A DNA stretch of 64,000 bases from an uncultured Hormoscilla sp. (lineage in GTDB: Bacteria; Cyanobacteriota; Cyanobacteriia; Cyanobacteriales; Desertifilaceae): assembly GCA_963921275.4 (NCBI GenBank), contig OZ001293.3, forward strand, positions 3,808,001 to 3,872,000, given 5' to 3'. Position numbers and translations under genes: made by a program. Below are positions 15,658-38,822 of this stretch, one piece after another. The notes under the pieces are model-generated. The model saw only the letters and a program-made list of their open reading frames with translations, did no database searches and was not told where the DNA came from. How positions within the stretch are numbered: position 1 is the stretch's first letter; each line of letters opens with the position of its first letter.

Positions 15658-16654
15658 ATTAGGGGTCGATCTGGGAATCGCTTCCCAACCCTCCCTTTCG
15701 AACCGTGCATGCGGTTTTCATCGCACACGGCTACTGGTTAGTTGGACCTTGTCATTGGCAGGATTACTGGGGATTGCTCCCTTTGTCCCTCTTCTTATGC
15801 AGTTTTTCCCCTTTATGGTAGTCGATAGGACTGTTTCGTATCTAGCTCCGGAAGGTTCGCGGGGGGTATCCAGGAAACCACTTATACCGCTCTTTGCTAA
15901 CATTGCCCCTGTCTCGTCATTAGGGGACTTTTCAAGTTTTACCCGGCTAGAGTTTTAGTCCATATTACAATCTAGGATTTCTCCTGATTTTTGGTACGTA
16001 TTAGGGATACTTCCACCCAAGATTTCCAACTATATCCGACCCACGTCTGCCGGTACATTCCTGCACCACTTATACAAGGAGTTACCCCTGTCCTTTGCTT
16101 CTTGGGCCATCTCTCTCCACATGGCTTACGCTTATCATCTAACTGGTCCCTATCTCCTGACCACCGGTCGATAGTCGAGTAGTTATGGACAGCACACGTG
16201 GAGTTACTTCGTTCCCTGGTATCATTTCACGATGTTTTTAGGTCCCTGCTTTACCCCGGGAGCTACTTTGAGTGTGATGTTGGCCATATGCAACAGCCAA
16301 CACTAGCTACCATTTCCTTTTTAGGCCAGCGTGTAAGCCTTCTTCCGCTGGTTACACATAACGAGGCTTTCACAGATTCGTTTTCCTAACCATGAGCATC
16401 TTTCCTAGCGGAGTTGCCGACTTTGGGCTGTCAGCTATCCTACATTTAAGTCCTTGCTCCGCACCACGGTGATGTCACTCCGCAGCACTAAGGACCGGTG
16501 TCACCCCCACACCTGGGGAGAGGGAATTTAACCCCCATGATGACCAGAGTTACCATATTGAGCCTGATTATGATTAGTTTTGGTTCTAAACATTCAGTCC
16601 AATTTTGGCTCGGCTTTTCCGTGTTTGTACAGGTTAGACCGAAACGAGTCGCAC
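15658..16654 (-). ncRNA. ORF-less group II intron (about 1.0 kb)
   Basis: 5' GTGCGACTCGTT; domain V AGCCGTGTGCGATGAAAACCGCATGCACGGTT; DVI ending CCCCTAAT. EBS1 loop TGCATA is complementary to the 5' exon end TATGCA. Confidence 0.88.
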
Positions 16655-19338
16655 TGCATATTCTGTGTTTTGCCTCGCCTCCTTGGGCTTCAAGATCTCA
16701 CCGTTGCTTAACAATAAATATTTACTGCCTCTTTCTGTCACCCCGAGCTTGCAATTTGTTTAATTCACGATTGACATGTTGCATAACATGAAATCGAGCG
16801 TAAACTATTTGTGCAGAAGATTTTTTCGACAACTAAGGGATAACCTCCCCACATATTTATGCTGACCTCTACAACTCCTTCGCGGACCTCTAAGTCAAGC
16901 AAGGGTTTCAATTATTTCCCATAAGTTTATGAGAATTGATTACTTCTAATAAATGTAACTACTCACAGCAACAAGTAGGGCTTGTTGAGAAAGGGAAAAA
17001 CCCCGCAATTCTCAGCCCGAGAAACTGTCAAGTAGATTGCCATTAATCACGGAGCGCAGCCAGGAAAAAGTGGGGCTTAAAAAGCATGATAAACAGAGCA
17101 ATTCCAAGCCGGAGCAAGTATCAAGTAAATTTCATTCGGTCCCAGGCCGCTACTGGCAAGAAGTAGGGCTTGAAGAAAAGGAGATAAATTCCAAGCCCCC
17201 GGCCCTGTGTTAAGTAGATTGCCAGGCGGACCACGACCAGCCAAAGACAAAAGTTCACAGAGGCTAGCGCTCGCCGAACCTCCTTGCAATCCTGTAGTCT
17301 CTAAGAAGCTAAACATCATTGCAACCAACTTAGCGCCCCAAGCACTTCTAGCGCCACCACTAACTTGGCGATGTACTACTAGAGGACGTCGCGAGCGCAT
17401 CATTGTTATCAGGTTTAACTTCCTATGGGAGTTAAAAATGTGAACCACTCATTCCCATGACCTTCGAGTTTTAGGCCGCGTCTTTGGGCGTCTGCTGGCC
17501 ATCCAGCAGATGGCGGTTTAGCCAAAATTGCGTTGCGCTTCTACAGTAGGAGGTTTTTGCGCTCTGTTGTTCAAGACTCAATAAACCGGTGTGAAGTCGG
17601 TGATCAGCTTTTCTAGCTGTCCATAAAATTTGCTTAATCTGTTGTGCAAAATCAACATTCGCGGCCAAGCGACTGGTTAAGAGAGCGTCCAAATCTCCTT
17701 CTAGGTGAGCCAAGCATTTCTGTTTGGCCGCCGCTGTGGACCATAGGCGCTAAAACAATCACTGGTCAGAATACCGTCAAAATTTTCTGGGAGTAACTGT
17801 TTCAGTTCGGCGCTACCACGGGTTGGAGCCAAAAGCAGAACGTTGGTCACTGGTGGCTACCCATAACCAATACTTAATCCCATCAATGCCATAAGTTGTC
17901 TCCTCCACAGAGCCCACAGCAGGTTTTTGTACATAAGCTAGCCACTTTTGATAACTTGGCTCTCAACTTTCGCGCTTTCCATCGGTGCATCGAAGCTAAA
18001 CTACCTTGGGAAATTGCTATAGCCAATACATGTTCGACAAAATACTCTTGCTTTCGCCAGGTCAGGTTGCCACCATTCAAGCGCCAACCAACAACACTGC
18101 ATAACCTACCGCCATAACTAAACCCTTCCTTGACTCCCCACGGCAAAGGAGCATATCCAGACCAACCAGATGAGGGGCATTGGCAACGAGGACGCTGGTA
18201 TTCTCTGATTTCTACTGGTTGCTCTAGCAGTTCTGCGATTTGTTGAACTTTCTTGGGAGCACCTGTCACCGGCTCTACCTGGGCTCCACAAGTGGGACAA
18301 GCTACAGGCAATAGCTGTTCTGTGCGATCGGGTTCTCCAAATCCCGGAGCTTGTCTTACCACAGTGATTATCTTTAGGACCGCCTTTTTTACCTTTTTTA
18401 CCCTTGCTAGGGGCTGAAGGTTTTTTGAGAAGGTCTTGTGAGGGGGGGACGACCGGTTTTTCAGTTTCTTCAGCTCGGAGGAGAGTTGTAAATTTTCCTA
18501 GAGCCTCTAGTTCTTTCTGTTGCTTCTCAATTCTAGCCTGCTGTTGTTTGAGCAGTTGCTGCTGCTTGACCATCCACTCGATCACCAGCAGATAGTTTGC
18601 CATCTTGTCAGCAGGGATGGCGGAGGTCATCTGTGAGGTCTGTAGTGCAGCTGAAATTCTTATATGGCAATGGTAGGGAGCGATTTTACACAGTGGATGT
18701 TTATAGCAATGAGCATCGCCAGTTATCCATTCTCAATAAGCTTTATTTATTGCTGTGAGCAGTTACTAATAAATCTCCTGTATCTAGATCGCTAATGACT
18801 GTTACAAAATCGCGTCCTTTGCGTAAACTAATCTCATCAAGACTCAAAGGTTTTGGCTGACCCCATTTTTTTTTACTGCTTGGCGCGCTCAATAAATCAA
18901 ATATACTTTGAACCTGAGTTTCAGTTAATTTTTCTTCCCGAGTAACTTGAAGAACTGTAGTTACTTTAACAGGTTCATATATATACTCTTGATCTCCACT
19001 GGTTCGACGGCCAATCAATAAAGTCTAATTGCTCGTCAACATAATGTTGACAACAAGAACAATCTCATTGTCCATGAGGAATTTTTAACTATACGGCTCG
19101 CCCCTGACAAATTATCAATTAAACTTTGACGTTCTTGATGCAGTTTTGTTGTAGTTTCTCCACATTGTATTTTTTCATTAAGCCAGGGAATTTGGAAATA
19201 GCTGATATCATCAATGATAGAGCAACTTTCAACAGTTGCATGATCGTAAATTCAATAATTTATCGAGATTAAAATTCATTTCGTCACCACTCAAAATGTA
19301 ACACCGTATACATTTTACACCAAAAACCCAGGAGAGCC
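16655..19338 (-). mobile_element. ISL3-family remnant interrupted by IS66 and abutting the intron
   Basis: End GGCTCTCC at 19338; fragments MNFNLDKLLNL, LSLDEISLRKG-DFVTVISDL and FHVMQHVNREL. Confidence 0.8.
16955..18766 (-). mobile_element. IS66-family element, transposase frameshifted
   Basis: IRs GTAACTACTCACAGCAA / TTGCTGTGAGCAGTTAC; 8-bp TSD TAATAAAT at 16947-16954 and 18767-18774; CPTCG zinc finger and RQVSGGARS motif. Confidence 0.92.
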
Positions 19339-19900
19339 GCAAGGATTTATCTGCTGGCAGTGAAGCCGTTTCTTGCTCAATATAATCGAGCAACTTCGTT
19401 TTTAAGGCTGCTGAACGCTCCGACAACGGTAAGAAGCGGGTCTGTTCAATAAAGTTAGTTAAAGAGTGTTCTGTTAATCCCTGTTGCTTGAGCTGCTTTT
19501 GAAGGGTGCGCACTAAGATGGAATGGCACTGACGACGAAGGAGTGAAAAAAAGCTCCAAGGCATGCTAGATAAGGATTATAGCCCTGAAGCTTAGTAAGC
19601 TATTACCCGTAATCATGCCCAATCGAGCTGATCTTCTCAAGTGTCAATTGGCTTCAAAGCAATCGCTTTACCATTCCGACAGGTGCTGCCAGAATCAGAC
19701 ATTCAACAGTTATGCGGACCAAGAAAACGTCCCTCGTTCGCCATCGATTGTTTTCGCCGGTGGTTACCCTGTGGATGTTCTTGCTGTGGATGCAGGTCAT
19801 CGATATGGCTGCGCCCCCAGCGCAGCGCTATCAGCCTCTACTCGCACATTAGCAGTCAGTAAGGTTGTGGTCTGGTGCCGCGGGAGAGCAGGCCCCCGAG
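19339..19900 (-). pseudogene. degenerate transposase-like fragment
   Basis: Broken ORFs (QKQLKQQGL..., SLPADKSL) lying between IS elements; family uncertain. Confidence 0.4.
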
Positions 19901-20037
19901 GATAGCGCAGCGCTATGGGTAAAATCATGAGGGGTCCAGGGAGGTTCTTACAGGGGTATGTTTTTTAGATTTTGGTTTGTTTGAGGGGGTGAGGGGGTGA
20001 AGGGGTATAAAAGGTAAATCAACATGGCTCTATTATA

Positions 20038-21049
20038 ACTCAAGTTGCGACCTATAAAAATTGGATACAAAAAGCTATGATAAAGAGAATTATTTTCAAC
20101 TCTAATCCCTTAGATGTAACAGCATGAATTGACTTGGGAAACAAATTTGTGATTCGACTAAAACAGGTTTCAACTTGTTTTCTTGTTACTTTTTGTATAT
20201 ATTCAAAACAAGAATATTCTTTTCTTTTTGAGTTCTTTTTTCGCAAAGGTTTTAACATTATACTTGACGACTCTTTTAGTAAATCCTCTAATTGATAATC
20301 ATTATAAGCTTTATCTCCATAAACTATTGAATTTGATGGTAAGTCAAAGCCAAAAGATTGCAAAACTTTAAAATCATTATAACTACCAGGATCTAGATAA
20401 AATTCTATTGGCTTTCCATTTTTGTTTACCAACATATGAACTCTTAATCCATAAAAATAACGTTTTTTACTGGCAATATACCCTCGATATTCTTCCTTGT
20501 TATAAATTTGGCATCTATCAATCCTAATATTATCACATACTGGCACCGGGAAACTATCAAGAATATATTCTTGACCCGGATTGAGCTCTTTAAATGTTTG
20601 AGCTATAACTTGGAAGAAAAACATCCAAATTGGTTCCTCAATATTGTGTAATCGACGATTGAACCTACTTTTACTTAACAGATTTTTTATATACTTGTGT
20701 TGGACCATAAATTGACAAGAGCGATCGTGGTGTCCTCCGAAAAAATATGCAGCAACTAATCCGACTGTCATCACTTCGGCATTGTTCATTTTTACTTGTG
20801 GATCTTCTTTTATATTTAACGCTTTTAGTAGCTCGTCACAAAGAACAAAAATTGTTGTAATCATATCTTTCATCATCTACATCCCCCAGCAATTAACTAT
20901 TATTTTAGTACATTATAACCTATAAACAGCCAACCCGCCGTGTAGCACAAAAAAAATATAATTTTGTATCAAAAGCTACGAAATATCCCAAATATCTGTA
21001 AAGTCTAAGTGGGTAATTCATATTTTTTTTAATAGGTCGCAACTTAGGT
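20038..21049 (-). mobile_element. IS982-family element, apparently intact
   Basis: IRs ACTCAAGTTGCGACC / GGTCGCAACTTAGGT; 7-bp TSD TATTATA at 20031-20037 and 21050-21056. Confidence 0.92.
20052..20876 (-). CDS. IS982-family transposase
   Basis: SRFNRRL, ILDSFPVPVC, YFYGLRVH, YGDKAY and RKQVET (DDE) motifs; uninterrupted 274 aa. Confidence 0.9.
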   Translation of the reverse strand: MMKDMITTIFVLCDELLKALNIKEDPQVKMNNAEVMTVGLVAAYFFGGHHDRSCQFMVQHKYIKNLLSKSRFNRRLHNIEEPIWMFFFQVIAQTFKELNPGQEYILDSFPVPVCDNIRIDRCQIYNKEEYRGYIASKKRYFYGLRVHMLVNKNGKPIEFYLDPGSYNDFKVLQSFGFDLPSNSIVYGDKAYNDYQLEDLLKESSSIMLKPLRKKNSKRKEYSCFEYIQKVTRKQVETCFSRITNLFPKSIHAVTSKGLELKIILFIIAFCIQFL

Positions 21050-21840
21050 TATTATAATAGACAATTATGACCAAAGGCCAGCTCCCACTCCCTCACTCTC
21101 CCACTCTCCCCCTCAGTTCGATCTGGTAAAAATTCAAAACATACCCTTGAAAGAGAGGGAGGTCCAGGGAGAGGGGGAGGCGAGAAGATGTTGATTTTTC
21201 GTGTTCTGCACAGATGGAGAGAAAATGTCGGCCTATTATTAATGGACCGACGCTTTAGAAGCTAAAGTTACTGCGAGGGCAGCTATGGCTGCGCTCCCAG
21301 GGGAGATATCTCTGCTCCTTGCTCTTGTCCTAGGGTCCATAGGGCACACAGGAGACATCGCAGCGCTAATTAAGAAGTGTGCCTGCTAGATGGCTCTTCG
21401 GTGATTATGAGGGACACAACTCAGCTGGACAGTGGGAAGTTCTATGGCTGCGCCACGCTACGCGATTGGGGAACTGCTCAAGCATGGAAGTGGGTTTGGG
21501 CCCGAGAGACCTATATGCAGCAATTCGCGGGCTCCTAAAGGCTGTAAGCCTTTCGTCCCAAGGGGTTCAGCTTTTAGGATCGCTCCTATTTTCAGAGAAT
21601 TCGCACTCTCCAAATCCGAGACCTTTGTATAAAAATGCGGAAATCATGAAATTAAACGAAGAAGCTCAGGAAGCAAAAGAAGCAGTAGAGAAGACACGAA
21701 TAACACTTGAGTCCGAGAGAGCAGAGCATCAAAGTAATTTTTAATGCTCTGTTCTTTCCTCATCAAGTGCTCTCAGAAATGGGAAGAGATACAAAATTAT
21801 TCCGGGAGCATACCACTTTGGCAATGAGTAGAAATACTAT

Positions 21841-22641
21841 AGGTTCTGTTGACATTTGGCTTGACAAAAAGAGCGATTGCTGTTATAATCTATTCTGTCT
21901 AATGGATAAAAAATATCGCCAAATTAAATATGCAAGAAATACAAGGAAAAACTTGGGAAAAAATATTAGTATTTTTGAGAGGACAGAGTTAAATATACCT
22001 GGGAACAGAAGAGCAGAAAATTTATCAATGGAGTCTTATGGATAATGAGAAGCACAGAGAATTACCCGAACAATATGGCAAAGGGAATAGTGTTTTTATG
22101 CATATTTAACCGTTGGAGTGCCAAAGGAATCTGGAACAGTCTCTATCAAAATTGGATTGAGGATCCAGATTGAGAAAATCTATTAATAGATCGCACTGTA
22201 ATTAGAAGTCATCCTTGTGCCAGGGGGGAGCAAATCAAGCTAAGGGAAGATCTGTAGGAGGATTTACTACTAAAATTCATGCTGTTAGCGATGGGTTAAG
22301 GAACCCTTTAGATTTTACTCTGACATCAGGAGAAATTCACGATGTTAATTTTGCCATTATTACAGGAGCAACAAGGAGAAAGAGTAATTGAAGATAGAGG
22401 TTATGACTGTAATGAGTTGATTGATAAAATCGCGAGGTATGGAAGCAGTTATTCCTTCAGAACCGCAAGGAGCAAAGAGAATATGACAAACATACTTATA
22501 AAGAGAGACATTTAATAGAAGGTTTTTTTAACAAGCTATGTCGGATTTTTTCTAGATTTGATAAATCTGCTCGTAATTTTTGGAGTTTTATCTGTTTTGC
22601 CTCTACTTTAATTTGGCTCAAATGAAATGTCAACAGAACCT
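21841..22641 (+). mobile_element. IS5-family (IS427-like) element, transposase degraded
   Basis: 17-bp IRs AGGTTCTGTTGACATTT / AAATGTCAACAGAACCT; remnants GGFTTKIHAV, DRGYD and YKERHLIE. Confidence 0.82.
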
Positions 22642-22759
22642 ATAGTGCTCCCTATACATTTGTGCAAATTTCCGATAGGGGGAGATGGCGGCGCTCAGTC
22701 CTTGCAGGGTAAGGCTTTCAGGAAATCGACCGGTTGCACAACGAGCGCCGGGACTTGCT

Positions 22760-23097
22760 ATAGCATTTCTCAAAAACATGAGGTACAATAAGAGAGTCAA
22801 GAATATATGGAGGAGAAAGCCATGAAACCCTATTCAGTATATCTACAAAAATCGGTCTATAAAAATGAGAATATATCACAAAGAAAACTGGCGAGCAGAT
22901 TTAGGGTAGCTCTAAGTTTTGTTACCCAAATCATCCAGCAGGATCGGCGGCAATTTGTTACCTAAGAAAAGTCCTGGTCGTCTACGAAAACTTAAGGATG
23001 AAGAACTGGCAATTATTCATAATTTAGTAAAGGAAAATAATGACTGGACCTTAGAAGAATATCAATCTGGTCTTGAAAAAGAGACCAATCAATGCCC
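22760..23097 (+). mobile_element. IS630-family 5' fragment
   Basis: MKPYS...ISQRKLASRFRVALSF...PGRLRKL...NDWTLEEY; ends at the hicA 3' end. Confidence 0.65.
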
Positions 23098-23276
23098 AGC
23101 GAAGGAATAACCTGCCGCAAGGTTCCGATTTTGAGGTCTTTGGCACCCCAGTCCGGTATAGAGGCAAATCTCTCTGTGGCTGAGTTGTACCATTTTCGGT
23201 GCGAACCGCCCCCTCGGCGGGGAAGTTCTTCGCAACCAAGTCGGCGTATTTTTTTAGTCACCTCGCGATATTTCAT
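23013..23276 (-). CDS. hicA: HicA-family toxin; C-terminus altered by the IS630 junction
   Basis: MKYREVTKKIRRLGC...GGGSHRKW...IPDWGAKDLKIGTLR. Confidence 0.8.
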   Translation of the reverse strand: MKYREVTKKIRRLGCEELPRRGGGSHRKWYNSATERFASIPDWGAKDLKIGTLRQVIPSLGIDWSLFQDQIDILLRSSHYFPLLNYE

Positions 23277-23531
23277 GAAGCTGCTACCGTAATCAACGTC
23301 TCAGTCTAAATAGGAGTATCGGGTGCAGTTGCCACCGGCTGCAAAATTGGCGGTAGCGGTTTTCCTAAATCCTCATAAATCTCAATTAATGCTGCCGTCT
23401 GCTACATTAGGCAACACTTCGTCAATGCTATCAGCTTCCGTGACTAAATTAGGCAGCAGCGGGCAGGTAATAGTATATCCTCCCTCCGGTTGTGGTGACA
23501 AAATCAAGGGTAACTTGTATATCCTCTCCAT
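23273..23531 (-). pseudogene. hicB: HicB-family antitoxin, frameshifted
   Basis: MERIYKLPLILSPQPEGGYTITCPLLPNLVTEADSIDEVLPNVAD followed by a frameshift stop at 23382. The probable original stop overlaps the hicA ATG. Confidence 0.75.
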
Positions 23532-23690
23532 TATTCCTCCCTTAGCTGGCAGTTTTGGTGACTGTAGCTTTCTCAATGTAGAAATGCTACATATTCATTT
23601 ATATGTTAGCATATCTGCCACCCCAGGCCCGACCATAACTCGCAGTCATTAATATGCTAGCATATGATAGTCGCTCATATCATAATCATT

Positions 23691-23936
23691 ATGAACCTCG
23701 TGATTCCTGACGATATTATCCGCTCGATCAAGATGAGTGAAGATGAATTGAAGCTAGAACTGGCGATCGCCCTGTACAAGCAGGAGTTAATCAGTAGCGG
23801 GAAAGCCCGCGCCTGGACGGGACTGACCGTACTGGAATTCCAGCACGAACTGGCTAAGCGCGGTCTTTGTATAAACTATGATGTAGAGGACTTTCAGGCT
23901 GATGTGAGGACGCTGCAATCCCTGGGGCTACTATGA
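23691..23936 (+). CDS. UPF0175-family protein; partner gene truncated
   Basis: ELKLELAIALYKQELISSGKA...EFQHELAKRG...YDVEDFQADV; an overlapping ATG ATT ATT start stops after 5 codons. Confidence 0.8.
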   Translation: MNLVIPDDIIRSIKMSEDELKLELAIALYKQELISSGKARAWTGLTVLEFQHELAKRGLCINYDVEDFQADVRTLQSLGLL

Positions 23937-24066: not shown

Positions 24067-26421
24067 GTGCGATTCGTTTAGTGTAAACCACCGGTGAAAG
24101 CCAGGTGGGGGACCACTAGCAGGGTCTCATTAGCCCTGACAACTTACAGATGATGGTGGTGAAAGTCCACCCCTCCAGGTGCAGGAGTGACAGCACATTC
24201 CCTACGGTAGCGATGGCATCAATCCGTAAAGCGGGAATGAAAGGCGCAATAACTGGTAGCCTAAAACTGGTTATCGTCGAGCAAGTAGTCATGATGAGCG
24301 TAAGCAAAGATTTGCAACGTCGTAACGCCTAACCAGTGTAATAAGGCTGATACACTGGCCCAAAAAGGGAAAGGATATAGGTCGTTGGCGGATTATTGAC
24401 CGACCAATAAGCACTGACAATAAACCCGGCGTATGGAATCCATCTAAAACTACAACCAATCGTCTGTAGGAACGAAGTAACCCAGTTATGTACTCTCAAC
24501 CACCGGTCGATAGCCACCAAAGGCGTAACATCTGCTTTCATCAGGCAGGTCAAAACTGGGAAAGATTGAGTGGAGAAGCAAACGCCTACCGGTAATAGGT
24601 AGGATACGCTGACGCCCTCACCGTAATGTCAATTGTGAAGTTGTAAGTAGCAATACAAACGTTATGAGCACGATGTCAAAATCGATGAATGAATGGAAGG
24701 CAATCCCTTGGCGTAAGCTAGAACGGAAAGTCTTTAAGTTGCTTCTGAGAATTTACAGAGCGGCACAACGTGGTGATAAGCGAACAGTTCGCAGACTCCA
24801 AAGGTTACTGGTAAAATCCTGGTCTGCCAAATGTTTAGCGGTACGACGGGTAACACAAGATAACCAGGGAAAGAAGACTGCCGGTGTGGATGGTGTAAAA
24901 TCACTGACCCCAGAGCAGAGGATGGAACTGGTAGGACAGCTTAAAATCTCAGAGAAGGCTAAACCAGCTCGTAGAGTATGGATACCTAAGCCTGGTAGAG
25001 ATGAGAAACGTCCATTAGGAATACCCACGATGTACGACCGTGCGACACAGGGGTTACTGAAAATTGCGCTAGAATCAGAATGGGAAGCGTATATGGAAGG
25101 AAACTCCTATGGATTTAGACCAGGGAGAGGATGCCATGATGCAATCGGGGCAATATTTAATGCTATAAGATATAAGCCCAAGTCGGTGCTAGATGCAGAC
25201 ATAGCAAAATGCTTCGATAAGATTGACCACAAAGCGCTAATGGAAAAACTAAATACGACTTCACCAATTCGTAAACAAATACGAGCATGGTTAAAAGCCG
25301 GGGTGATAGATAAGAAAGACTGGTATGGAACCGAAGAATGGACACCCCAAGGAGGAGTCATATCACCGTTATTAGCTAATATAGCCCTACACGGACTAGA
25401 AAAAGCTGTAAGGGAACTTGCAAAAATCCGTGAAGAGAAAAGTAAACTGACAGTGGTCAGGTATGCTGATGACTTTGTGGTATTGCATGACGACAAGGAA
25501 AAGGTAGAAGAAGCGCAGAAGGTCATAGCAGAGTGGCTAAAAGGCATAGGGTTAGAACTCAAGCCAGAAAAGACGAAAGTATCTCATACGCTAAAAGGAG
25601 AAGACCAAAGATTTGACTTCCTAGGGTTCAACGTAAGGCAATATGAGGTAAGTAAGAACAGAAGCGGTAAGAGTCCACATGGAAGACCTCTAGGCTACAA
25701 AACCCTCATCAAACCCAGTAAAAAGTCCATAGGTAAGCATAAAGAAAGGTTAGCAGAAGTAGTAACCAGCCATAAAGCAGCTCCGCAAGCTGCCCTGATA
25801 AGCAGACTCAACCCGGTAATACGGGGGTGGGCTAACTACTTCAGGGCTGTGGTAAGCAAAGAAGTTTACTCAGACATGGACACATACCTGTGGGAAATCC
25901 TGTGGAATTGGGCAAAAAGAAGACATCCTAACAAGTCAAAGCATTGGATAGCCAATAAATACTGGTCAAAAGGCCAAGAAATAGAGCAGAAGAGGGTGTA
26001 AAACTATACAAACACGCGAGTGTAGAAATAGTTCGGCACATAAAAGTGAAAGGAACAGCTAGCCCATACGACGGGAAGCTAACATATTGGAGCACAAGAC
26101 TAGGCAGGAACCCAGAGCTGAGTAATAGAGTAGCTTTGCTACTGAAGAAGCAAAAGGGGAAATGTCAACATTGCGGACTAACGTTCAAAGATAGTGACAG
26201 TTGGGAAGTAGACCACATGAAACCGCTTTCATTAGGTGGTAAGGACGGGTGGGACAATCTACAACTTTTGCACAAACACTGACACGATATAAAGACTGCC
26301 AAAGATGGTAGTTGCCGTACCCATGACAAGGGTGGCATCGCTGAGGATCAGGATGAGGTGAAAAGCAGATCGTCCGATTTTGAAGACGAGTCGGGGAGGT
26401 GACTCCTTGGCTTAGTTTAAT
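24067..26421 (+). mobile_element. group II intron (chloroplast-like lineage) with RT/maturase/HNH ORF, probably inactive
   Basis: 5' GTGCGATTCGTT; 3' ...CTTAGTTTAAT. EBS1 TATTG(A) pairs with exon (A)CAATA. Domain V is degenerate (GAGGATCAGGATG instead of GAGGAGCCGGATG). Confidence 0.9.
24664..26282 (+). pseudogene. ltrA: group II intron reverse transcriptase/maturase-HNH, frameshifted
   Basis: RPLGIPT, SYGFRPGR, TPQGGVISPLLANI and YADD motifs; stop at 26001. The HNH part (CQHC...EVDH...NLQLLHKH*) is in another frame and has a second stop. Confidence 0.9.
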
Positions 26422-26451
26422 AAATCATAACAGCAAGAGAGGAAGACTACT

Positions 26452-28789: not shown

Positions 28790-30650
28790 CACCTCTTTTG
28801 ACTGATGAGCAACAAGCCAATTTAGAGCAAATTTTGTTAGGCCCTGCCCCTGATGGAGGACTCTGGAACGGTCGGAAAGTGGCAGACTACCTTTCTGAAT
28901 TATTGGATAAGCCTGTTTTGCGGCAACAAGGATGGCGAATTCTCAAGCAACTGGATTTTCGCCTCAAAGTTCCTCGACCAGCCCATAGCGAATCCGATCC
29001 TCAAGAGCAACAGCAGTGGAAAAAAAAACTGGCAGACGAAGTGGAGAAGGTGCAACCTGTGTCCCTTGACAGGGGTGAGATAATATCTTCTCACCCCTGT
29101 CAAGGGACACAGCAGGAGTATCCCGATGCCGAGGTATTGGTGTGGAGTCAGGATATGAACACCGCATAGGTCTACAGCCAGTAATGAGGCGAGTTTGGAC
29201 TAAGCAGGACTTTCAACCTCAGGCAATAGTTAACTGGAAACGAGAATGGTCCTGGTTATACGCCTTTGTTGAACCTCAAACGGGACAGACTTATTGGTGG
29301 ATGTGCGATTCGTTCAGGCGTAAACTGGCGACGGTGAAGTCTGGTCTGGTTTCATTTGCCGGATAACTCTGGTTATCATGGGGGTTAAATTCCCTCTCCC
29401 CAGGTGTGGGGGGTCGAGGGTACTACTGGTCCTTAGTGCTGCGGAGTCACATCGCCGTGGTGCTCCGCTAGGACTTAAATGTAGGATAGCTAGCAGCCTA
29501 AGCTAGTGACACCGCGCTTGTTAGATGCTCATGGTTAGAACAAGCGAACCTGTGAAAGCCTCGTTAATAAGAACCAGCGGAATAAGGCTTATACGCTGGC
29601 CCAAAAGGGAAATGGCAGTTAGTGTTGGTAGTATTTGCTTACCAGCATCGCACTCGAAGAACTCCCGGGGTATAGCAGGAACCTAAAAGCATCGAGAAAT
29701 GATACCAGGGAACGAAGTAACCTCACGTGAGCTGTCCCCATTTGGACCAGTTAGATGTAAAGCGCAAGCCGCGAAGAGGAAGGATGTTCTAAGAAGCCAA
29801 CGCCTGGGGTAATGCCTGGGATATGCAGACGTAGGACGGATATGGTAAGAAGCCTTTGGTGAAAGTAGCCCTAACACGTCGCAAAACTTAGGAGAAATCC
29901 AAAAGTATGAATATGGACTAGAGTCTCAGCCGGGTAAAGTTCAGAGCCCCGATAAATTGCCAGAATGGGGAAATGTTAGAGAAGAGCGGCTAGAATGGTT
30001 TGCTGAACTACCCTCCGCGATCGCGCAGCGTGCGCGCAGCGCATACCTTCCGGAGCTGAAATCATTAACGGTCCAATAGGATTGACCATAAGGGGTAAAA
30101 TTACAGAGGGTAAGGGGAAACGGGGTGACCTAATTATTGATGATGATATGCCTAAGGACAAGCCCCAGCGGTGAAAGTCGCAAGTCCGGTTCCGCTCTTG
30201 GAGGGTTGGGGAGTGATTCCCAGCTCGACCCCGACCATTACCTCGATGTCTCCGGAGTAGTGCTCCTAGCGCTCTCCGGAGACATCGAAGGGTGCGTACA
30301 GACTTGTTTGGTGCGGTTCTTAAAGATTTTGCCGACCATTTTGAGATGGGACCAAAAAAGCGGGTTATTCTAGCGGTGGATCGAGCAGGGTGGCATATCA
30401 GTAACAAGTTAGACGTTCCTGAAGGAGTTCATCTCTTTCCCTTACCTTCTTACTCTCCTGAGTTACAACCAGCAGAAAGATTATGGCCTTTAGTGAATGA
30501 AGTCCACAGCCTACAAGCTTTTGACTCAATCCTAGAGGTTGAATAACTTGTTTCCCAACGCAGCCGATATTTACTCAATCAAACTGGTTTAATCCGAGGT
30601 CTCACCTTCTTTCATTGGTGGCCCGAGATAATGGCATATGCTACTTAACT
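28790..30650 (+). mobile_element. IS630-family remnant hosting a group II intron and two hairpin inserts
   Basis: PDGGLWNGRKVA, RLKVPRP, YAFVEPQTG, DRAGWH and LPSYSPELQPAERLW motifs. Confidence 0.85.
29303..30235 (+). ncRNA. ORF-less group II intron (about 0.93 kb); domain V partly degenerate
   Basis: 5' GTGCGATTCGTT; colinear with the 15658-16654 intron; 3' GAAAGTCGCAAGTCCGGTT...CGACCCCGAC. EBS1 ATTTGC pairs (with G-U) with exon GTGGAT. Confidence 0.88.
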
Positions 30651-30669
30651 GTGGTTAATTAATGTGACT

Positions 30670-31195
30670 TTATATTAGGCTTGATTATGGCGTTATCTTT
30701 GTTAGTGTATAAGGTAGCAGAGAGGCGGATAAGGCAGACATTTAAACGGACAGGTTCAAGAGTAAAAAATAAGTTAGATCGCCTGACGTATAGACCAACT
30801 TTACCTTGGATATTTCAATGTTTTCAGTCAAGCCCTATCTATGTTGATCGCGGCATTAAACAGATTTCAAATATTAATAAGGAGCATTTGCACACGTGAA
30901 ATTCTTTCCCCCAGCATGGAGCGCGGTACTATTTACTGGCGTAACTTATGTAAAAACACACGCTCAAGTAATGAGTAGAACTTAGGGGTATTTACCTTTG
31001 AGTAGCTCTCTTGTGAGCAATAAGAGGGAAATTTTAGTGATTTTATATAAAGTAGGTTTGTTCTTGTTGATTGGTATAATTTTTTGGGTATTTTAAGGGA
31101 CTCAGTCGCGATATTTGCCCATATTTGTGATAGTGTAAGAGTTGAGAAGACCAATGTATTATGTATGTAGGATACCTGGAGTGCTAAATGTAGGC
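30670..31195 (+). mobile_element. IS1634-family 3' remnant (possible 5' remnant near 28590-28650)
   Basis: IMALSLLVYKVAERRIR...RPTLPWIFQCF; terminal AAATGTAGG. Confidence 0.6.
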
Positions 31196-31224
31196 TTAAC
31201 TGTAGTCAGCACATCTTATCGACC

Positions 31225-31600
31225 CCCCGTTAGCGCAGCGGCAGATTGCTAGCGCTCCTGCGTCGCGAGCACGCGCAGCGTGCGGCCGCTGCGCTAACAT
31301 GCCTCGCAACAAGCTCCGAAGCGCTAGCAATCTCACCGACGACGCCGGAGTGCTCTTCATCTCATACGGGGCCGGGGGGATTGCTAGCTGCTGCGCAGCC
31401 GCTGCGCTAGCGGGGGGGGGGTTAACTCAATGAAAGCATAAGTTAATCGCTACTTCTGTGTTCCCCGGTTGCTCGATGTCTCTTGGTCGCTCGATGTCCC
31501 CCGGGAGCGCTAACCGCACAAAAGGGGGGACATCGTAGTCGCACTACCCAAGAGACATCGTAATCGCACAAAAGGGGGAACACAGCCCCCCCCTCGCAAT
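31225..31600. repeat. cluster of nested palindromic small repeats
   Basis: Nested inverted pairs GTTAGCGCAGCGGC/GCCGCTGCGCTAAC, GATTGCTAGCGCT/AGCGCTAGCAATC and CGATGTC/GACATCG. Confidence 0.7.
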
Positions 31601-31739
31601 GACAAATAAAATGCAAAACCTTGAAGTATTGCCTCGCTTAGACAATTCTTTACTGCCCCAAAAAACGCAGTTTATGACCGTTCGGAGTATAGCCCAGAAA
31701 CCAGGTTTTTGGGAAAAACCTGGTTTCTTAATTCTGGCA

Positions 31740-33170
31740 TCAACCTACAAGAGGTTGCCCGATCGTATGGACTTTAATCAGACTGGTAGTACCAGAGGCC
31801 CCCACAGGCACTCCAGAAGTAATGACCACCTTTTCCCCTTCTTTGGCCAAACCCATCTCCACAGTTTTATTCACCACAGTCAAGAACATTTCCTCGGCTG
31901 ACTTTACCACTGGCATCATGGCAGGTTCCACGCCCCAGGACAAGGCCAACTGACGATAAGTTGTTGCTTCCGGGGTGAAAGCAACGATCGGGGTTTTGGG
32001 GCGATACTTAGATACCAACCGGGCCGTACTCCCCGATGAAGTATTACAGAGAATCGCCTGAGCACCAATATCATAGGCCAGACGGCAGACAGATTCAGCC
32101 ACAGCTTCCGTAACGCTGAAACTACCCTCATCGGTACGAGGCAGCTTCAGCACCCCCTCTTGCAGCGCTGCTTCTGTATAGGTAGCAATGCTGTGCATCG
32201 TCTGCACGGCCTCCACTGGATAGTCTCCTACCGCAGTTTCCCCAGAAAGCATCACCGCATCGGTGCCATCCAGAATTGAATTTGCCACATCCGTGGCCTC
32301 GGCACGAGTAGGATCCGGTGCGCTAATCATAGACTCTAGCATCTGGGTGGCAGTAATCACTGGCTTGCCTGCTCGGTTGCAACGTTTGATGATATCTTTC
32401 TGAATTAAAGGTACTTGCTTTAGAGGCAGTTCTACACCCATATCACCACGGGCAATCAGAACTCCATCTGCTACTTTCAATATCTCGTCAAAATTCTCCA
32501 CCGCCTCCCGTTTTTCGATCTTGGGGATGACCAGAATATGGTGACCCGCTGCCTCGATCGTCCGCTGGACCGGTTCTAAGTCGGCGGCGGTGCGCACGAA
32601 GGAGACGGCCACCAAGTCCACACCCTGTTGGATGCCAAAACGCAGATCCCTCAAGTCCTTTTCCGTCACCGGGGTGACAGGTAGCCGCGTATCTGGGACG
32701 TTAACGCCTTTGTGGGAGGAAAGTAAACCCCCAATGACTGCTTCGGCACGGATGATGTCTGCCTCCCGATCGGTCACTATCATCTTCACCCTGCCATCAT
32801 TAATTAAAAGCCGATCGCCTTTGCGCACCATTGCAAACAAAGCCGGAATTGGCAAGGGTAATTCCTCTATACTATTGCCAGAATCTGAGAGCACAAAAGT
32901 TGCTGTTTCTCCCGCTGCTATCGGCAGTCCTTCATCTGGTAAAGTCCCCAGTCGCAGCTTCGGTCCGCACAAGTCTTGGGCGATCGCGATCGGTTTGTTG
33001 TGTTTTTCACTAATTTTCCGCAAGTGCTCGATCGCCCGTGCGTGGGCCTCATGGGTGCCGTGGGAAAAATTCAGGCGGGCCACGTTCATCCCCGCCTTTA
33101 CCAAAGCCTCTAGGCGATCGGGGGACTCTGTAGCTGGTCCGACGGTGCAGATAATTTTCGTTCTACGCAT
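31740..33170 (-). CDS. pyk: pyruvate kinase
   Basis: RRTKIICTVGP, ARLNFSHG, KIEK, IARGDMGVE, ATQMLESM and MLSGETA motifs. Confidence 0.96.
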   Translation of the reverse strand: MRRTKIICTVGPATESPDRLEALVKAGMNVARLNFSHGTHEAHARAIEHLRKISEKHNKPIAIAQDLCGPKLRLGTLPDEGLPIAAGETATFVLSDSGNSIEELPLPIPALFAMVRKGDRLLINDGRVKMIVTDREADIIRAEAVIGGLLSSHKGVNVPDTRLPVTPVTEKDLRDLRFGIQQGVDLVAVSFVRTAADLEPVQRTIEAAGHHILVIPKIEKREAVENFDEILKVADGVLIARGDMGVELPLKQVPLIQKDIIKRCNRAGKPVITATQMLESMISAPDPTRAEATDVANSILDGTDAVMLSGETAVGDYPVEAVQTMHSIATYTEAALQEGVLKLPRTDEGSFSVTEAVAESVCRLAYDIGAQAILCNTSSGSTARLVSKYRPKTPIVAFTPEATTYRQLALSWGVEPAMMPVVKSAEEMFLTVVNKTVEMGLAKEGEKVVITSGVPVGASGTTSLIKVHTIGQPLVG

Positions 33171-33224
33171 AATTTTCCCTCTTGCATAGGATTCCCATAC
33201 AGTCTAGAACTATTCACACCCAGC

Positions 33225-34995
33225 TCATGTTTTCAGCGATACTAAGCCCTGGTAGCGAATGCCCACAGGGGTAACTTCAAAGCTACAGGGAAGCACCTCT
33301 AAACCGAGGCCGATCGCCTCTCGCAACAGCCGTCCGTAGACCGGGTCTGCCTTATCTCCCGGAGCAAAGGACGTGCAGTCTCCCCGGTTAATAAAATAAA
33401 GCATCACAGCACGATTTTGCGGCAGTTGTGCCATCAGTTCCCGCAAATGTTTCTGTCCCCGTGCCGTCACCGTATCCGGAAACAGAGCCACCTTCCCCTG
33501 GGCCCAAGTTGTGTTTTTCACTTCTATATATACTCGGATAGGGATCGACTTGCGCTTTTGTGAGAGTTATGATAGGAATGCCATCGAATTAGTAACATCT
33601 GTAACAATGATTAACAGATCATTTACTGCTGAAGAAAAAGAACAACTGAATTATTTAAAATATTATCATCCCAACCCGAGAGTTCGTAAGAAAATGCAGG
33701 GTTCAAGAGTCAAAACATAAAGCATAAAGAAATAGCCCGGCTTGCTGGGGTATGTCAAAATACAATGCGGGATTATTTTAAAGAATATTTGGCATGTGGT
33801 TTCGACAGGATATCTCAGTTAAATTCACATAAAAATCAAAGCGAATAATTTTGAAAATTTGATTAGAGAAGAATTTGAAAAACAGCCACCAGCAAGTTTA
33901 AAAGAAGCCAAAAAGAATTAACTGGGATTAAACGTAGCCAGGTCAGGAATTTTATGTTAAAGATGGCAATGGGGAAAGGTAGGACAGATACCAGGAAAAG
34001 CCGACCCAGACATACAACAAGAATATAAAGAAAAAACTCTATAACCCAGACTGTTAGAGGCTTCCGAAGGAAAAAAAATCGTTTTTTGATGCCGCCCATT
34101 TCGTGCATTTCTAGGATTTTTATGGTGTTTTAAGAGAATATTTATTAAAACAGCATCAGGGAGAAAAATATTTAATGTTTTAGGGGCATTAAATGCGATT
34201 GGAAGTTATAACCGTAACAAATGATGCCAAATGCTATAAGGGTTTGCGAGCTATTGGAAAAGATCAGAAAAAAAATTATATGCTAATTTCATTAGTAATA
34301 GATAATGCTCGCTATCAAAAATGCAATTTGCTTTGGCAAAAAGCTAAAGAACTCAAGGTTATTATATTTACCATCATGCGGAATTGAGCGGTTGTGGAAA
34401 TGGGGAAAAAAGAAATGTTTATCTTCCCAGTATTATGAAGATTTTGATTCATTTAAATCGGCAATTGCTGATCCGATACACAATGCTCATAGTCTCCACA
34501 AAGAAGATACAATCTCTGCTAACTCTGAATTTTCAAATAATTGACAAAGCTCAAATTATGACCTAGTGCAGTATATATAGGCAACCCCTGGCTATCAGTC
34601 AACAAAAAATCCACCCGACTTTTTTTTTCACGACCGTATACTACCTCAGAGCGAACTTGCTGGTAACTGCCCAATTCGGGAAACAGGTATTTCGACAAAG
34701 CCAGTTTAATCGCTCGATTCGGCATCTCCGTATTTACACCTACCCAAGTTGGTCCATTATCCCCTACCTGAATCATTTCCCAAGTATAGGGCAACTTGCG
34801 CTTGGGATTGTCACTATAAGACACCTGCACCGGACTTCCGATTTCACAAACACCCTGCATCGGTCCCGTATTGGGGCAATGTGCCACGATCGTTTCCCCT
34901 GTCGCCAGTTCTATCTCCGCCAAAAACCGCTTGTAATGTCTGCGCAAAATCCCCGGATAAAGAGTTTGGTAGCGATATAGCCAATCTGTTATCAT
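33225..34995 (-). pseudogene. sfsA: SfsA nuclease split by IS630
   Basis: N-half HYKRFLAE...HCPNTGPM...SRVDFLL...LPIY; C-half IEVKNTT...FPDTVTARGQKHLREL. Confidence 0.9.
33531..34573 (+). mobile_element. IS630-family element inserted in a TA run of sfsA; transposase degraded
   Basis: TA-flanked; fragments YHPNPRVRKK, FNVLGALN, DNARYQK and IERLWKW. Confidence 0.85.
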
Positions 34996-35122
34996 ACTCC
35001 CCTTTGCCTACTTTCTACTTCCACATGTATGTGATCAAAAATTTTTTTAATTATGATTTAAATCACTGATAAGTTTAATCTATTTATCGTAGCATAATAA
35101 ATAGATCGAGAGCGACGCAGAA

Positions 35123-36307
35123 GTGAAGATGAAGAAACTCAAATCAGTGGCCACCTCGGAATATCTGCCTTTTTCGGTGATTAAGTATGTAGCCATAACC
35201 GAAGAAAATCTGTTATTAAACGATGCCAAAGGCGATAAAATATTTGAATCAGATTATTACATCAAAAAAAATCAGCCGAAGTCAATCTTGTGCCTGGAGA
35301 TCAGGGGTAAAGGCAAGCTAATTGGGATAATTTATCTAGAGAATAAGATGACAGATAAGGCCTTTACTGCCGATCGGGTCCAATTTTTAAAACTGCTGAC
35401 CACCCAAGCGGCGATCGCCCTAGAGAATGCCCAACTATATCAGCAACTAGAGGAATATTCCTACAGCTTAGAGGATAAAGTAGAAGAGCGCACCCGGGAA
35501 TTAAAAGTCGCCCAAAAGCAGATCGTTACCCAAGAGAAACTCGCTTCCCTCGGGGCCCTCACGGCTGGCATAGCCCATGAAATTAGGAATCCCCTCAACT
35601 TTGTCAACGGTTTTGCCGAGATTTCTGGGGATCTAGTCAAAGGAATAACAGCAGAAATAGAAAGTATATCAAAGCATATAGATCCAGATAAACTTGAGGA
35701 GCTCGAAGAGCTATTAAATGACGTGAAAGGAAATCTGACCGAGATTAAGGAACAGGGGAAAAGGGCTGATGAAATTATTAAAAGTATGCTATCCCACTCT
35801 CGGGAGTCGAGTGGCGAACGAGAATTGACTGACATCAATGCTATCTTAGCGGAGTCGGTCAACTTGGTTTATCACGGTTTTCGTGCTAAAGATAATATCT
35901 TTAACATGACCGTAGAAACAGACTATGATCAGGATCTGCCGGGGATAGAGGTAGTACGATCCGATGTGACCCGAGGGTTTCTAAATATTATCAACAATGC
36001 CTGCTATGCTGCCAACGCCAAAAAAAAAGCAGCAGATGGGGAATTTACCCCACAGCTAAAAGTGAAGACTAGCAATTTGGGCTCTGCTGTAGAAGTCCGC
36101 ATTCGAGATAACGGTACCGGGATACCACCGAAGATCCAGGAGAAAATCTTCCATCCCTTTTTTACCACCAAGCCCACAGGAGAAGGAACGGGTCTGGGCT
36201 TATCTCTGGCTCATGATATTATCGTTGGACAGCACCGAGGAGAAATATTGCTGGAAACTGAATCGGGTGTCTATACAGAATTTATCATCCGCTTTCCTCG
36301 CGATTAG
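35123..36307 (+). CDS. GAF sensor histidine kinase, probably the C-terminal remnant of a larger kinase
   Basis: Partial GAF (PKSILCL..IYLEN), H-box [32 protein letters not shown]. Confidence 0.85.
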
Positions 36308-36524
36308 TCAGTAGTCAATGCAAGAATTTTGAATTTATAGATGGGTCCTACTACCTGGCGATCTGAAACAAGTTATAACTGTGATTAAGAGCACAAAAAA
36401 TATGCAAAAAAACTATGACATATTCACAAAAATTTTTCAAATGACTACTACTATGGAAATTGTAGTCAAGGTAAATGGGGAGATCGCTATAAATATAACC
36501 ATATCCCGCCAGGAGAAAGCAAAA

Positions 36525-36854
36525 ATGACAAGCAAAATCTTAGTTGTCGATGAAGAGTTGCTTTTGGAGCGCCTGCTGAAGCTGCGATTTAGAAAAAAGA
36601 TCCGAGATCGTCAATTAGAGTTTGTGTTTGCCCATAATGGCAGAGAAGCCTTAGAGAAATTGCTTTCGGACCGCCAGTTTGACATGGTGCTGACGGCTCT
36701 TAATATGCCGGAAATGGATGGTTTCACTTTTCTAGAGCAACTACAGGCAATAAACTCTCATCTGCCAGCAGTAGTGATGTCAGCTGATGAGGGTCTGACT
36801 AGTATGAAAACAGCGATGAACCGGGGTGCTTTTGATTTCGTGACCAACCGATAG
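36525..36854 (+). pseudogene. response regulator receiver, degenerate and truncated
   Basis: KILVVDE...DMVLTALNMPEMDG has Ala at the phospho-Asp position; a frameshift gives VTNR* where VTKP is expected. Confidence 0.7.
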
Positions 36855-37150
36855 ATTTTCACGCTCTAGAAGTGAAGATATCCAAAATTCTAGAACATGT
36901 ACGACAAATGAAAGCAACCATGACGCCTCAGCCGCTAGTGTCAGTGAACAGTTATCAGTTACCAGTTCTTTGGCATCAGTTCTAGATGTCCCACTGCGGG
37001 GCAGAGTAGTCAAAAATTAACAGCTGTACTAGTACAAAATCACCCCTGCATTTTCCCTCAAGAGGCAAATACAGCATCAAGTAGTTCCTCGATTTTTTTT
37101 AACCCTAATTGAATTTAACTCGGAACATTGCCTATCGGCCCTCATGGCTA

Positions 37151-38010
37151 GTCGCGGGAGCGTCATTAAATATATTGACAGTGGCAGGTAATTTTGTTAC
37201 TGTTACTATGGAAAGAATCTAAAATTACCTTGGATTACATAGGGCGATGGCAGTTGGGCAACTTGGGCCAAGCTGTACTCTTGTTTCCAGAATCTCGCGC
37301 TATGGCTGTGGGGGCTGCTATTACTATGGCCTCGAAGGGCGATCGCCGGCACCAATATAACTGGTCTGCCGATGGAGAGGCTCTCCGACTGCCGACTGTA
37401 CTGCCCGTTACCACCGACATGGTAGAATTGGCGGGCACGATGCCCTAGCCGAACGAGGGCCTTTGTGGTGGAGTGGCTTGTATAGGAGAATACGCCTGTG
37501 CTTGAGCAGAGATTGGTTACCATAATGGAAAAGACTTGTTTCAAGTAATCAAAAGCCAAGACGCTTCGTCAGGAATCCACGGCTCTCGGCTTGTAAACTG
37601 GACAGCGCCAGAAGCAACATACCTTTGGTGTTGCCTCGGAAATCTCGAAGATGCCAGCGCAGAGGGGAAGTCGCGGGAGCGCCATTAAAGATATTGACAG
37701 TGACAGGGAATTTTGTTACCATCGAAAGCATCTTAGCAGCACCACTCGCACCCCAAAGGGCGATCGCCAGCACCAATATAACTGGCCTGCCGATGGAGAG
37801 GCTCTCCGACTGCCGACTGTACTGCCCGTTACCACCGACATGGTAGAATTGGCGGGCACGATGCCCTAGCCGAACGAGGGCCTTTGTGGTGGAGTGGCTT
37901 GTATAGGAGAATACGCCTGTACTTGAGCAGAGATCGGTTACCATAATGGAAAAGACTTGTTTCAAGTAATCAAAAGCCAAGACGCTTCGTCAGGAATCCA
38001 CGGCTCTCGG
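37151..38010. repeat. tandem duplication, about 420-bp period, of unidentified degenerate sequence
   Basis: 37337-37590 is nearly identical to 37757-38010; 37151-37200 is similar to 37669-37719. Confidence 0.85.
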
Positions 38011-38017
38011 CAAAAGC

Positions 38018-38046
38018 TTGACAAATAAGAGTTGGTCAGATATAAA
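38018..38046 (+). promoter_or_regulatory. consensus-like sigma70 promoter, copy 1
   Basis: TTGACA-N17-TATAAA. Confidence 0.6.
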
Positions 38047-38116
38047 AGATGAGATGGGGAGGTCCAGGAGTTGAAGTCAGAAGCTAGGGTAGGAATGGTG
38101 CAATTAGTTGGAAAGA

Positions 38117-38770
38117 GTGCGATTCGTTCTAGTCTAACGTAGTCAAACACGGAACGCTAGCCTAAGAAATTAGGAACTCTGGTAATCATGGGGGTTCAAT
38201 TCCCCCTCCCCAGGTACGGGGGTCGAGGGTACTACCGGTCGGAGGTGCTACGGAGCCACATCGCCGTGGTGCCTCCCGAGGACTTAAATGTAGGATAACT
38301 GGCAGCCTAAGCCGGTGACGCCGCTAGGAACGTGAAATAATACTAGGGAACGAAGTAACCCATCGTGTGCTGTCTACCGAGACCAGTCAGATGTGAAGCG
38401 CAAGCTACGGTGGGAGGGATGGCCCAAGAAGCAAAAGCCCTAATTAATGCCTGGGATAAGCAAACAGGGGTCGGTGACAGTAGGAAATCTCGGGCTAAAG
38501 TAACCCTAATACGCCCCAATACCTAGCATGCGAAGGTGGGATAACTGGTGAAACGGACTCAGATAAATTGGTAATACTAAAGGTTATCCGGCAGCGCCAC
38601 TTACCAACCAGGAAAGGGGAGAAATTACATGAGATGAGGGACAACGGGAGTAATCCCCAGTAATCCTACCAATGACAAGGCCCTACTGCCCAGTAGCCGG
38701 GTGCGGTGAAAGTCGCAAACCCGGTTCCGCTCTTGGAGGGTTGGGGAGTGATTCCCAGCTCGACCCCGAC
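38117..38770 (+). ncRNA. ORF-less group II intron with an internal deletion of the EBS1 region
   Basis: 5' GTGCGATTCGTT; domain V AGCCGGGTGCGGTGAAAGTCGCAAACCCGGTT; ends CGACCCCGAC; lacks about 170 nt of domain I present in its relatives. Confidence 0.85.
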
Positions 38771-38822
38771 CAGGAAGTATAACTATTGCAGCGTCAAGAA
38801 AGATTAAAAAATCCCAAAAAGC

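Follow-up and report, generated by a model that had tools for sequence, protein, structure and literature searches.

The window analysed here is a 64,000-nucleotide stretch of the genome of an uncultured Hormoscilla sp. (contig OZ001293.3, positions 3,808,001 to 3,872,000), and the elements in question are three group II introns that contain no open reading frame (ORF). Copy 1 (997 nt, family F6) occupies window positions 15658-16654 on the minus strand and interrupts a repeat of about 60 nt. Copy 2 (934 nt, family F3) lies at 29303-30236 on the plus strand, in the sense orientation within a DDE_3/IS630-type transposase gene, and copy 3 (655 nt, plus strand, 38117-38771) derives by deletion from an 828-nt lineage (F7) and lies in a locally duplicated or repeated non-coding stretch upstream of a nonribosomal peptide synthetase (NRPS) ORF (1453 aa; 39326-43687). 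A fourth group II intron, at 24067-26421 on the plus strand, carries a decayed reverse transcriptase (RT) gene. We propose, with a probability of roughly 0.8, that the three ORF-less elements are part of a non-autonomous intron population that fills the chromosome, and that this population is mobilised by helper proteins and directed to its targets by guide sequences.

Three ORF-less introns and their exons

An earlier note, made from the letters of the window alone, described three colinear ORF-less introns with common sequence blocks, and this description holds. Each of its two blocks occurs exactly three times in the 64-kb window, once per copy, where none is expected by chance (expectation 0, 100 shuffles each); all three copies start with GTGCGA, they are colinear by BLAST, and blastx finds no RT in them. 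The starts it gave and both ends of copy 1 stand, but its 3' ends for copies 2 and 3 (30235 and 38770) are each moved by one base. The 3' end of the intron corresponds to GACCCC+4, as indicated by empty sites for copy 1 and by frame closure in four families other than that of copy 1, in which the count of ORFs closed by in-silico excision has a sharp maximum at GACCCC+1/4/7 but none at +3. Because the empty sites fix copy 1 and frame closure peaks at GACCCC+4, copies 2 and 3 are taken to end at 30236 and 38771. A border at GACCCC+3 was rejected, as it gives 18 sense and 22 antisense spanning ORFs versus 68 and 53 at GACCCC+4.

The earlier note allowed that the copies might not fold into domains DI-DVI; a six-domain fold with covariation was obtained. 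RNAalifold applied to representatives of 49 lineages (two of which, L039 and L040, lack 16 nt at the end) returns the classical DI-DVI layout with 192 pairs, a paired fraction of 95.2% of cells and changes on both sides in 104 of the pairs. When the structure is displaced by 1-3 columns as a control, the paired fraction falls to 37-47.5% and the two-sided pairs to 38-53, and column shuffling gives a mean of 87.1% paired cells with a maximum of 87.6% in 200. A separate alignment fold of 22 sequences, copies 1 and 2 included, contains 152 pairs, of which 74 are compensated. No match to an Rfam D1-D4 family is present in the window at E values up to 10. The lower DV helix of 8 bp is perfect in 274 of the 325 ORF-less copies counted genome-wide, with the compensating variants GGA/UCC, GUG/CAC and GGG/CCC, and in all three window copies a bulged A, the putative branch point, lies in DVI 8 nt from the end. 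Judged by sequence and predicted fold, the three elements are ORF-less introns of group IIB type and of a chloroplast-like lineage.

The Rfam scan for domain V that had been suggested as a check separates the copies. The RF00029 model (domains V-VI) scores 43.5 bits on copy 1 (15658-15735, minus strand), above the gathering score of 40, and 37.6 bits on copy 3 (38692-38770, plus strand), below it, and at E values up to 10 it matches neither copy 2 nor the local RT-bearing intron.

Copy 1 begins with GTGCGA and ends with ...GACCCCTAAT, and it retains 181 of 190 consensus pairs across all six domains. Its DV (15701-15732, minus strand) has the intact AGC triad that the earlier note reported, together with a GAAA loop and 11 of 12 consensus pairs, the exception being an A-C mismatch in the upper helix. 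DVI spans 15663-15695 (minus strand) and contains the bulged A, position 15666, at a distance of 8 nt from the 3' end; this placement follows from the Rfam alignment, the consensus pairs and direct reading. Exon-binding site 1 (EBS1), TGCATA (16287-16292, minus strand), is presented in an 11-nt hairpin loop and forms six of six Watson-Crick pairs with its intron-binding site (IBS1), TATGCA, at 16655-16660; EBS2, TGTGT (16354-16358, minus strand), pairs at five of five positions with IBS2, ACACA, at 16664-16668, three bases upstream of IBS1. These targets and their spacer (16655-16668, minus strand) lie within the repeat of about 60 nt, which includes a GGGGG-AAAAT-CCCCC hairpin (window positions 15610-15657 plus 16655-16685). 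Four unoccupied repeats elsewhere in the genome (C1:2807926, 690929, 910655 and 5280695) correspond exactly in sequence to the ligated exons of copy 1, IBS1 and IBS2 being identical or near-identical in them. Seven full-length sisters at 99.6-99.8% identity are located at other genomic sites, making eight full-length copies with copy 1, and two more members of the family are split by nested insertion. By structure copy 1 is an intact member of the population, and its insertion site matches its guides perfectly.

Public sequence runs compared with the window are represented by contigs, of DNA or of unknown kind. One contig in each of the sample sets X3, X4 and X9 joins 15645 to 16655, with a side of 25-29 letters. 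We rejected the interpretation of this joint as a spliced or empty copy 1, as the four uninterrupted paralogous repeats account for it.

Copy 2 carries a different EBS1 loop, ATTTGC (29633-29638, plus strand), which pairs at six of six positions, three of them G-U, with GTGGAT at 29297-29302, and an EBS2, ATAAG (29567-29571, plus strand), which pairs at five of five positions with CTTAT at 29290-29294; for copies 1 and 2 the earlier statement that the EBS1 loops differ and that each pairs with its own 5' exon is therefore correct. Excision of copy 2 in silico at 30236 produces an open frame of 177 codons reading ...YWWILP... The host gene is decayed, with an HTH_33 match upstream and a 3' exon that matches positions 58-141 of the DDE_3 (PF13358) profile, and this transposase flank is present once in the genome. 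Two sisters of copy 2 at 99.6% identity occupy different sites, and family F3 has 14 members. There is no joint spanning copy 2 among the 15 contig joints listed (122 further joints exist). DI-DIII of copy 2 retain 130 of 133 consensus pairs and DIV retains 23 of 32, and in the non-canonical DV (30160-30191, plus strand; type A, with the 5' strand AAGCCCCA) 8 of 12 are kept. The 3' strand of DIV and the 5' strand of DV form a block substitution relative to two canonical sisters, and the DV hairpin is absent from the minimum-energy fold of copy 2. By direct reading, A30228, 8 nt from the corrected 3' end, is the candidate bulged A of DVI. Adjoining copy 2 is a palindromic repeat of about 50 nt (30241-30290, plus strand; inverted arms 30243-30257 and 30274-30288), which reads through in frame as 17 codons within the transposase. 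Some 70 similar palindromes are scattered through the genome, and members of a 72-copy intron family are often inserted in them.

Copy 3 lacks 173 nt of DI that are present in four sister copies, the gap falling between its positions 214 and 215 (approximately 38330/38331). The deletion removed both guide loops, and with them the EBS1 whose loss the earlier note recorded. In DI 53 of 100 consensus pairs are kept and 45 are gapped, and DII-DVI are kept, including a canonical DV (38695-38726, plus strand) with 12 of 12 consensus pairs and a candidate bulged A in DVI at A38763, 8 nt from the corrected 3' end by direct reading. The 5' exon, GAAAGA, would pair at five of six positions with the EBS1 of the sisters, TCTATC. 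Copy 3 is dead because of this internal deletion. Its surroundings contain two repeats of 261 nt (37330-38011) and three of 35 nt (at 38012, 38817 and 39016), the latter containing TTGACA-17-TATAAA.

The intron population and its guide sequences

A BLAST search of the 7.03-Mb assembly, which also contains 16 phycobiliprotein matches, with the three copies reveals 374 intron 5' ends, 371 of which read GTGCGA. A 3' end is found within 6 kb for 351 of them, and 325 of these paired elements are shorter than 1100 nt. The 325 ORF-less copies form 54 clusters at 93% identity, the largest with 140 and 72 copies, and window copies 1, 2 and 3 fall in clusters of 7, 14 and 1. The diversified ORF-less family proposed in the earlier note is therefore real, with lineage-specific guides, and far larger than three copies. 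A motif scan of the genome finds 355 canonical DV hairpins and 72 aberrant ones; intron-like DNA amounts to 536,955 bp, or 7.6% of the assembly, and is confined to the chromosome. With about one intron per 16-18 kb, the presence of three ORF-less copies and one RT-bearing copy in 64 kb is average, so that the count of three in 23 kb given by the earlier note is right but reflects the usual density of this genome and not a local cluster. We note that one contig of the assembly, C3 (31,420 bp), has 17.6% G+C versus 47.4% for the chromosome, and may be foreign or contaminant DNA.

Copies within a family are nearly identical and widely dispersed. The families of 140, 72, 15 and 7 copies have median pairwise identities of 99.6-99.8%, and the two largest, each with a median of 99.8%, are found at 123 and 61 distinct flank pairs, respectively. 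Excision closes an ORF of at least 150 codons in the sense orientation for 68 of the 325 copies and in the antisense orientation for 53, and 204 do neither; when one copy per distinct 5' flank is counted, the copies with canonical DV divide into 53 sense, 33 antisense and 151 neither. Related copies are present in all four congeneric genomes examined, and among 36 further genomes of the family and order only weak, short matches are seen, in a few.

The population uses 31 distinct EBS1 and 34 distinct EBS2 sequences, and these match the targets of their own lineages. In 251 of 321 copies EBS1 and the IBS1 of the same copy pair at five or more of six positions, a figure from a first, conservative loop extraction that misplaces the loop in some small families, and EBS2 is paired at four or more of five positions in 237 of 301. 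By guide class, EBS1 pairs at five or more of six positions with its own IBS1 in 26 of 37 classes, versus 7.3% of cross-class comparisons, and EBS2 is perfect in 15 of 37 classes, versus 3.3% of cross comparisons. All seven clustered copies of the copy 1 family have one EBS1 loop in common, and their targets vary and use G-U pairs. Retargeting is accordingly a property of lineages and not of single copies, and the individually retargeted EBS1 of the earlier note holds insofar as the loop differs by lineage and matches its own exons, but not copy by copy.

Some introns are targets themselves. A lineage group with the EBS1 GGGAAT is inserted after ATTCCC in DI of sibling introns, giving twintrons, for example at C1:371227-371314, 1540259-1540347 and 6223364-6223456. 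Other nested copies are in the opposite orientation, such as around C1:5732229-5734096. The 64-kb window itself contains no twintron.

Domain V variants and candidate helpers

The unusual DV of copy 2 is shared by other members of the population. Eighteen copies, copy 2 included, have the type A 5' strand, and 29 have an altered 3' strand (type B), either TTCAGGTT or TTTAGGTT; one copy carries both, giving 46 aberrant copies among the 325. No DV hairpin appears in the folds of either type. DI-DIV are complete in these copies, and it is the DV helix alone that is disturbed, in a minority of the population. The aberrant copies look recently spread, to judge from family F2 (type B, 15 copies), which has a median identity of 99.6% and 12 distinct guide-matched flank pairs, with EBS1 paired at five or six of six positions. 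Among aberrant copies with distinct flanks, 9 of 41 lie in the sense orientation in ORFs that close on excision, a proportion no different from that of the canonical copies (Fisher p 0.76). In this genome the type A motif is found 21 times and the type B motif 51 times; of the four congeners, none has type A, and two have type B, once each.

On a tree from which DV and DVI were omitted, the two types turn up in scattered positions. The guide sets CATAG/CATCTA and ATAAG/ATTTGC of family F3 (14 copies) and its relatives each occur with both canonical and type A DV, and this four-gamete pattern shows that modules recombine, by template switching or gene conversion. The aberrant DV block may have spread among resident copies by gene conversion. 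That lineages with a broken catalytic DV kept multiplying as such in this species seems unlikely to us, although it is worth stating what this would imply: either disruption of the DV helix is tolerated when the intron is bound by a maturase, or the hundreds of sibling introns supply the catalytic hairpin in trans. Such help from siblings would parallel, in a bacterium, the transition from introns that splice themselves to a splicing machinery that acts in trans and is shared among introns. In either event the broken-DV lineages offer a testable way into the question of how much degeneration a group II intron can undergo without ceasing to spread.

The local RT-bearing intron (24067-26421) is colinear at 78-84% with full-length RT introns elsewhere in the genome. 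Its ORF (24664-26001) encodes RVT_N, RVT_1 and GIIM domains and is terminated at 445 aa; the HNH part lies in another frame and contains a TGA stop, and the DV sequence is degenerate. We regard the intron as full length but dead, in agreement with the earlier note, although it is a diverged lineage of the same RNA class as the ORF-less copies and not a member of another class as that note had it. The best match of its ORF to a solved structure is chain 6ME0_C (E 3e-95), which we take to be the TeI4h protein or particle of Thermosynechococcus elongatus. A contig joint 24773->26276 within the ORF has a side of 25 letters, too short to interpret.

The genome has 93 RVT_1 matches, of which 22 lie in stop-free frames of at least 550 codons and represent candidate helpers, frames of 609, 607, 600 and 591 codons among them. 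The GTGCGATTCGTT start is common to the RT introns and the ORF-less copies, as are blocks in DI and DV that are colinear between them; elsewhere the two are diverged. The earlier note placed the helper outside the window; intact RT frames are indeed available elsewhere, but none belongs to an intron whose RNA is the same. Of the paired elements, 26 exceed 1100 nt; these consist of nested ORF-less copies or contain foreign or opposite-strand inserts, and none has a sense RT match. Eroded RT remnants in DIV, which that note had named as grounds for refuting its reading, are absent from the ORF-less introns by blastx. The RT matches that blastx does return were rejected as artefacts, as they are on the reverse strand and fall in the tails of RT frames where these extend into an inserted intron. 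At least two types of DIV stub exist among the ORF-less copies, and a comparison of DIV between RT-bearing and ORF-less introns found no shared anchor.

Mode of spread, rival explanations and related systems

The explanation we favour draws on the six-domain fold with its covariation, the matching of guides and targets, the near-identical copies at many sites and the intact RT frames elsewhere in the genome; splicing, mobilisation in trans and the identity of the helper RT we infer from these sequence data. A plausible scenario is that an intron copy would be transcribed together with its surroundings, and that its folding and splicing would be aided by an RT/maturase encoded by an RT intron of the same RNA class elsewhere in the genome. 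The resulting lariat-protein particle would then reverse-splice into DNA that pairs with the EBS2 and EBS1 loops, and the inserted intron RNA would be copied into DNA. As the lineages differ mainly in these two loops, each would strike its own set of sites.

Several observations weigh against this explanation. Four target repeats that match copy 1 perfectly are still unoccupied; copy 2 and 45 other copies are without a canonical DV; and 53 of the 325 copies are antisense to the ORFs that their removal would close, an orientation in which splicing cannot restore the gene. Among the RT-bearing introns of the genome none was found whose RNA is that of the ORF-less copies, and DIV of these copies contains no RT ORF remnants at the nucleotide or protein level, so that the link to a helper rests on class-level likeness. 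The same absences would be expected if the helper were a free-standing maturase or RT, or a host factor, instead of the protein of an RT-bearing intron, and among the 93 RT matches there are several that are short or have no recognisable intron around them. We nonetheless consider such a helper very improbable, as the RT introns have the 5' start, DI blocks and DV in common with the ORF-less copies, and as the closest known system, that of T. elongatus, has intron-encoded proteins (IEPs) whose specificity is documented to be relaxed enough to include diverged ORF-less introns (PMC2882425).

The unoccupied targets could also mean that the introns were left behind by a past burst and have ceased to be spliced or to move, so that the three copies in the window are inert DNA. 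Copy 3 is deleted, the DV of copy 2 is non-canonical, the local RT intron is dead, and 204 of the 325 copies lie outside any ORF of at least 150 codons that closes on excision, all of which this explanation accommodates. It fits poorly with median identities of 99.6-99.8% at distinct sites in the families of 140, 72, 15 and 7 copies and with the 22 long intact RT frames, and the 68 sense copies in exactly closing ORFs are expected if the genes are still used or if the insertions are very recent; we judge it very unlikely, if marginally the best of the alternatives. Least probable of all is spread at the DNA level, by recombination, gene conversion or hitchhiking on mobile DNA such as an IS630-type element, without reverse splicing. 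Copy 2 does lie in a transposase gene, some flanks are identical (123 flank pairs for 140 copies and 12 for 15), and the occurrence of the F3 guide sets with both DV states shows modules that recombine. However, most copies have unique flanks, these flanks pair with their own EBS1 and EBS2 far more often than with the guides of other lineages, the transposase flank of copy 2 has no second copy in the genome, and the borders are exact to the base.

Reverse splicing with help in trans has a close precedent in T. elongatus, where 17 of 28 introns are ORF-less, six guide families are distinguished, and mobilisation of ORF-less introns in trans by related 'driver' IEPs was demonstrated by experiment (Mohr, Ghanem and Lambowitz 2010, PMC2882425). 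The group IIB introns TeI3 and TeI4 of that genome and the present population agree in that ORF-less introns outnumber their RT-bearing relatives in one cyanobacterial genome, that families are set by different EBS sequences matching their own sites, that twintrons arise by insertion into sibling introns, and that ORF-less copies are mobilised in trans by IEPs (by assay there and by inference here). The kind of system is therefore already known, and what differs is the larger scale, the lack of ORF remnants and the lineages with aberrant DV: at least 325 ORF-less copies in 54 clusters are present here, a scale more than 10 times greater; TeI3 is described as keeping N- and C-terminal ORF remnants around one shared deletion, whereas none were detected in the copies of this genome; and 46 copies here have a non-canonical DV, unlike TeI3/TeI4 as presented there. 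The heat-aided proliferation put forward for T. elongatus is a mechanism that we do not carry over to this organism.

Other likenesses are more distant. In the section of a group II intron survey that covers Arthrospira platensis and other Phormidiaceae, filamentous-type cyanobacteria likewise have expanded CL-type and ORF-less introns, and the maximum reported there is 101 per genome (Miura et al. 2022, PMC8919778), in contrast to the 355 canonical and 72 aberrant DV motifs and 7.6% intron DNA of the present genome. Euglena chloroplast group II and III introns, as summarised in part of PMC2882425, are similar in that many are ORF-less, that some have degenerate or missing catalytic domains and that dependence on trans-acting factors is presumed, although that case is an organelle and its degeneration much deeper than here, where DI-DIV are complete and the DV helix is disturbed in a minority. 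The Trichodesmium group II twintron provides another intron within an intron in a cyanobacterium (Pfreundt and Hess 2015, PMC4649490), whereas in the present genome the nested copies lie outside the window. In a full-text literature search whose coverage leaves out most subscription journals and supplements, no paper came to light that reports ORF-less group II introns by the hundred in a single bacterium.

Bacteria usually hold only a handful of group II introns. This chromosome, with roughly 400, mostly without a protein, in dozens of retargeted lineages and some of them inside open genes in either orientation, provides a natural example of the kind of invasion by introns that for early eukaryotes is generally no more than postulated. 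Labour would be divided in it between a few RT-bearing 'drivers' and the many introns that depend on them. ORF-less introns are invisible to gene callers, and the Rfam DV model misses or under-scores two of the three copies in the window. Because annotation does not see the introns, interrupted genes such as the transposase around copy 2 are called as fragments.

Among the other features of the window, sfsA (33225-33521 and 34519-34995, minus strand) is split by an AT-rich, IS630-like insertion of 1045 bp (33527-34571) flanked by TATATATA. Contigs from two related sources (X5 and X9) join 33526 to 34572, such that sfsA is uninterrupted in them, and the insertion is therefore specific to the lineage of this genome. 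Contigs of other samples skip 16945-18766, 19832-21343 and 19944-21173, stretches with IS66-like and DDE transposase ORFs, the sides of the joints being 21-29 letters long, which suggests that the samples differ in the presence or absence of insertion sequences at these positions.

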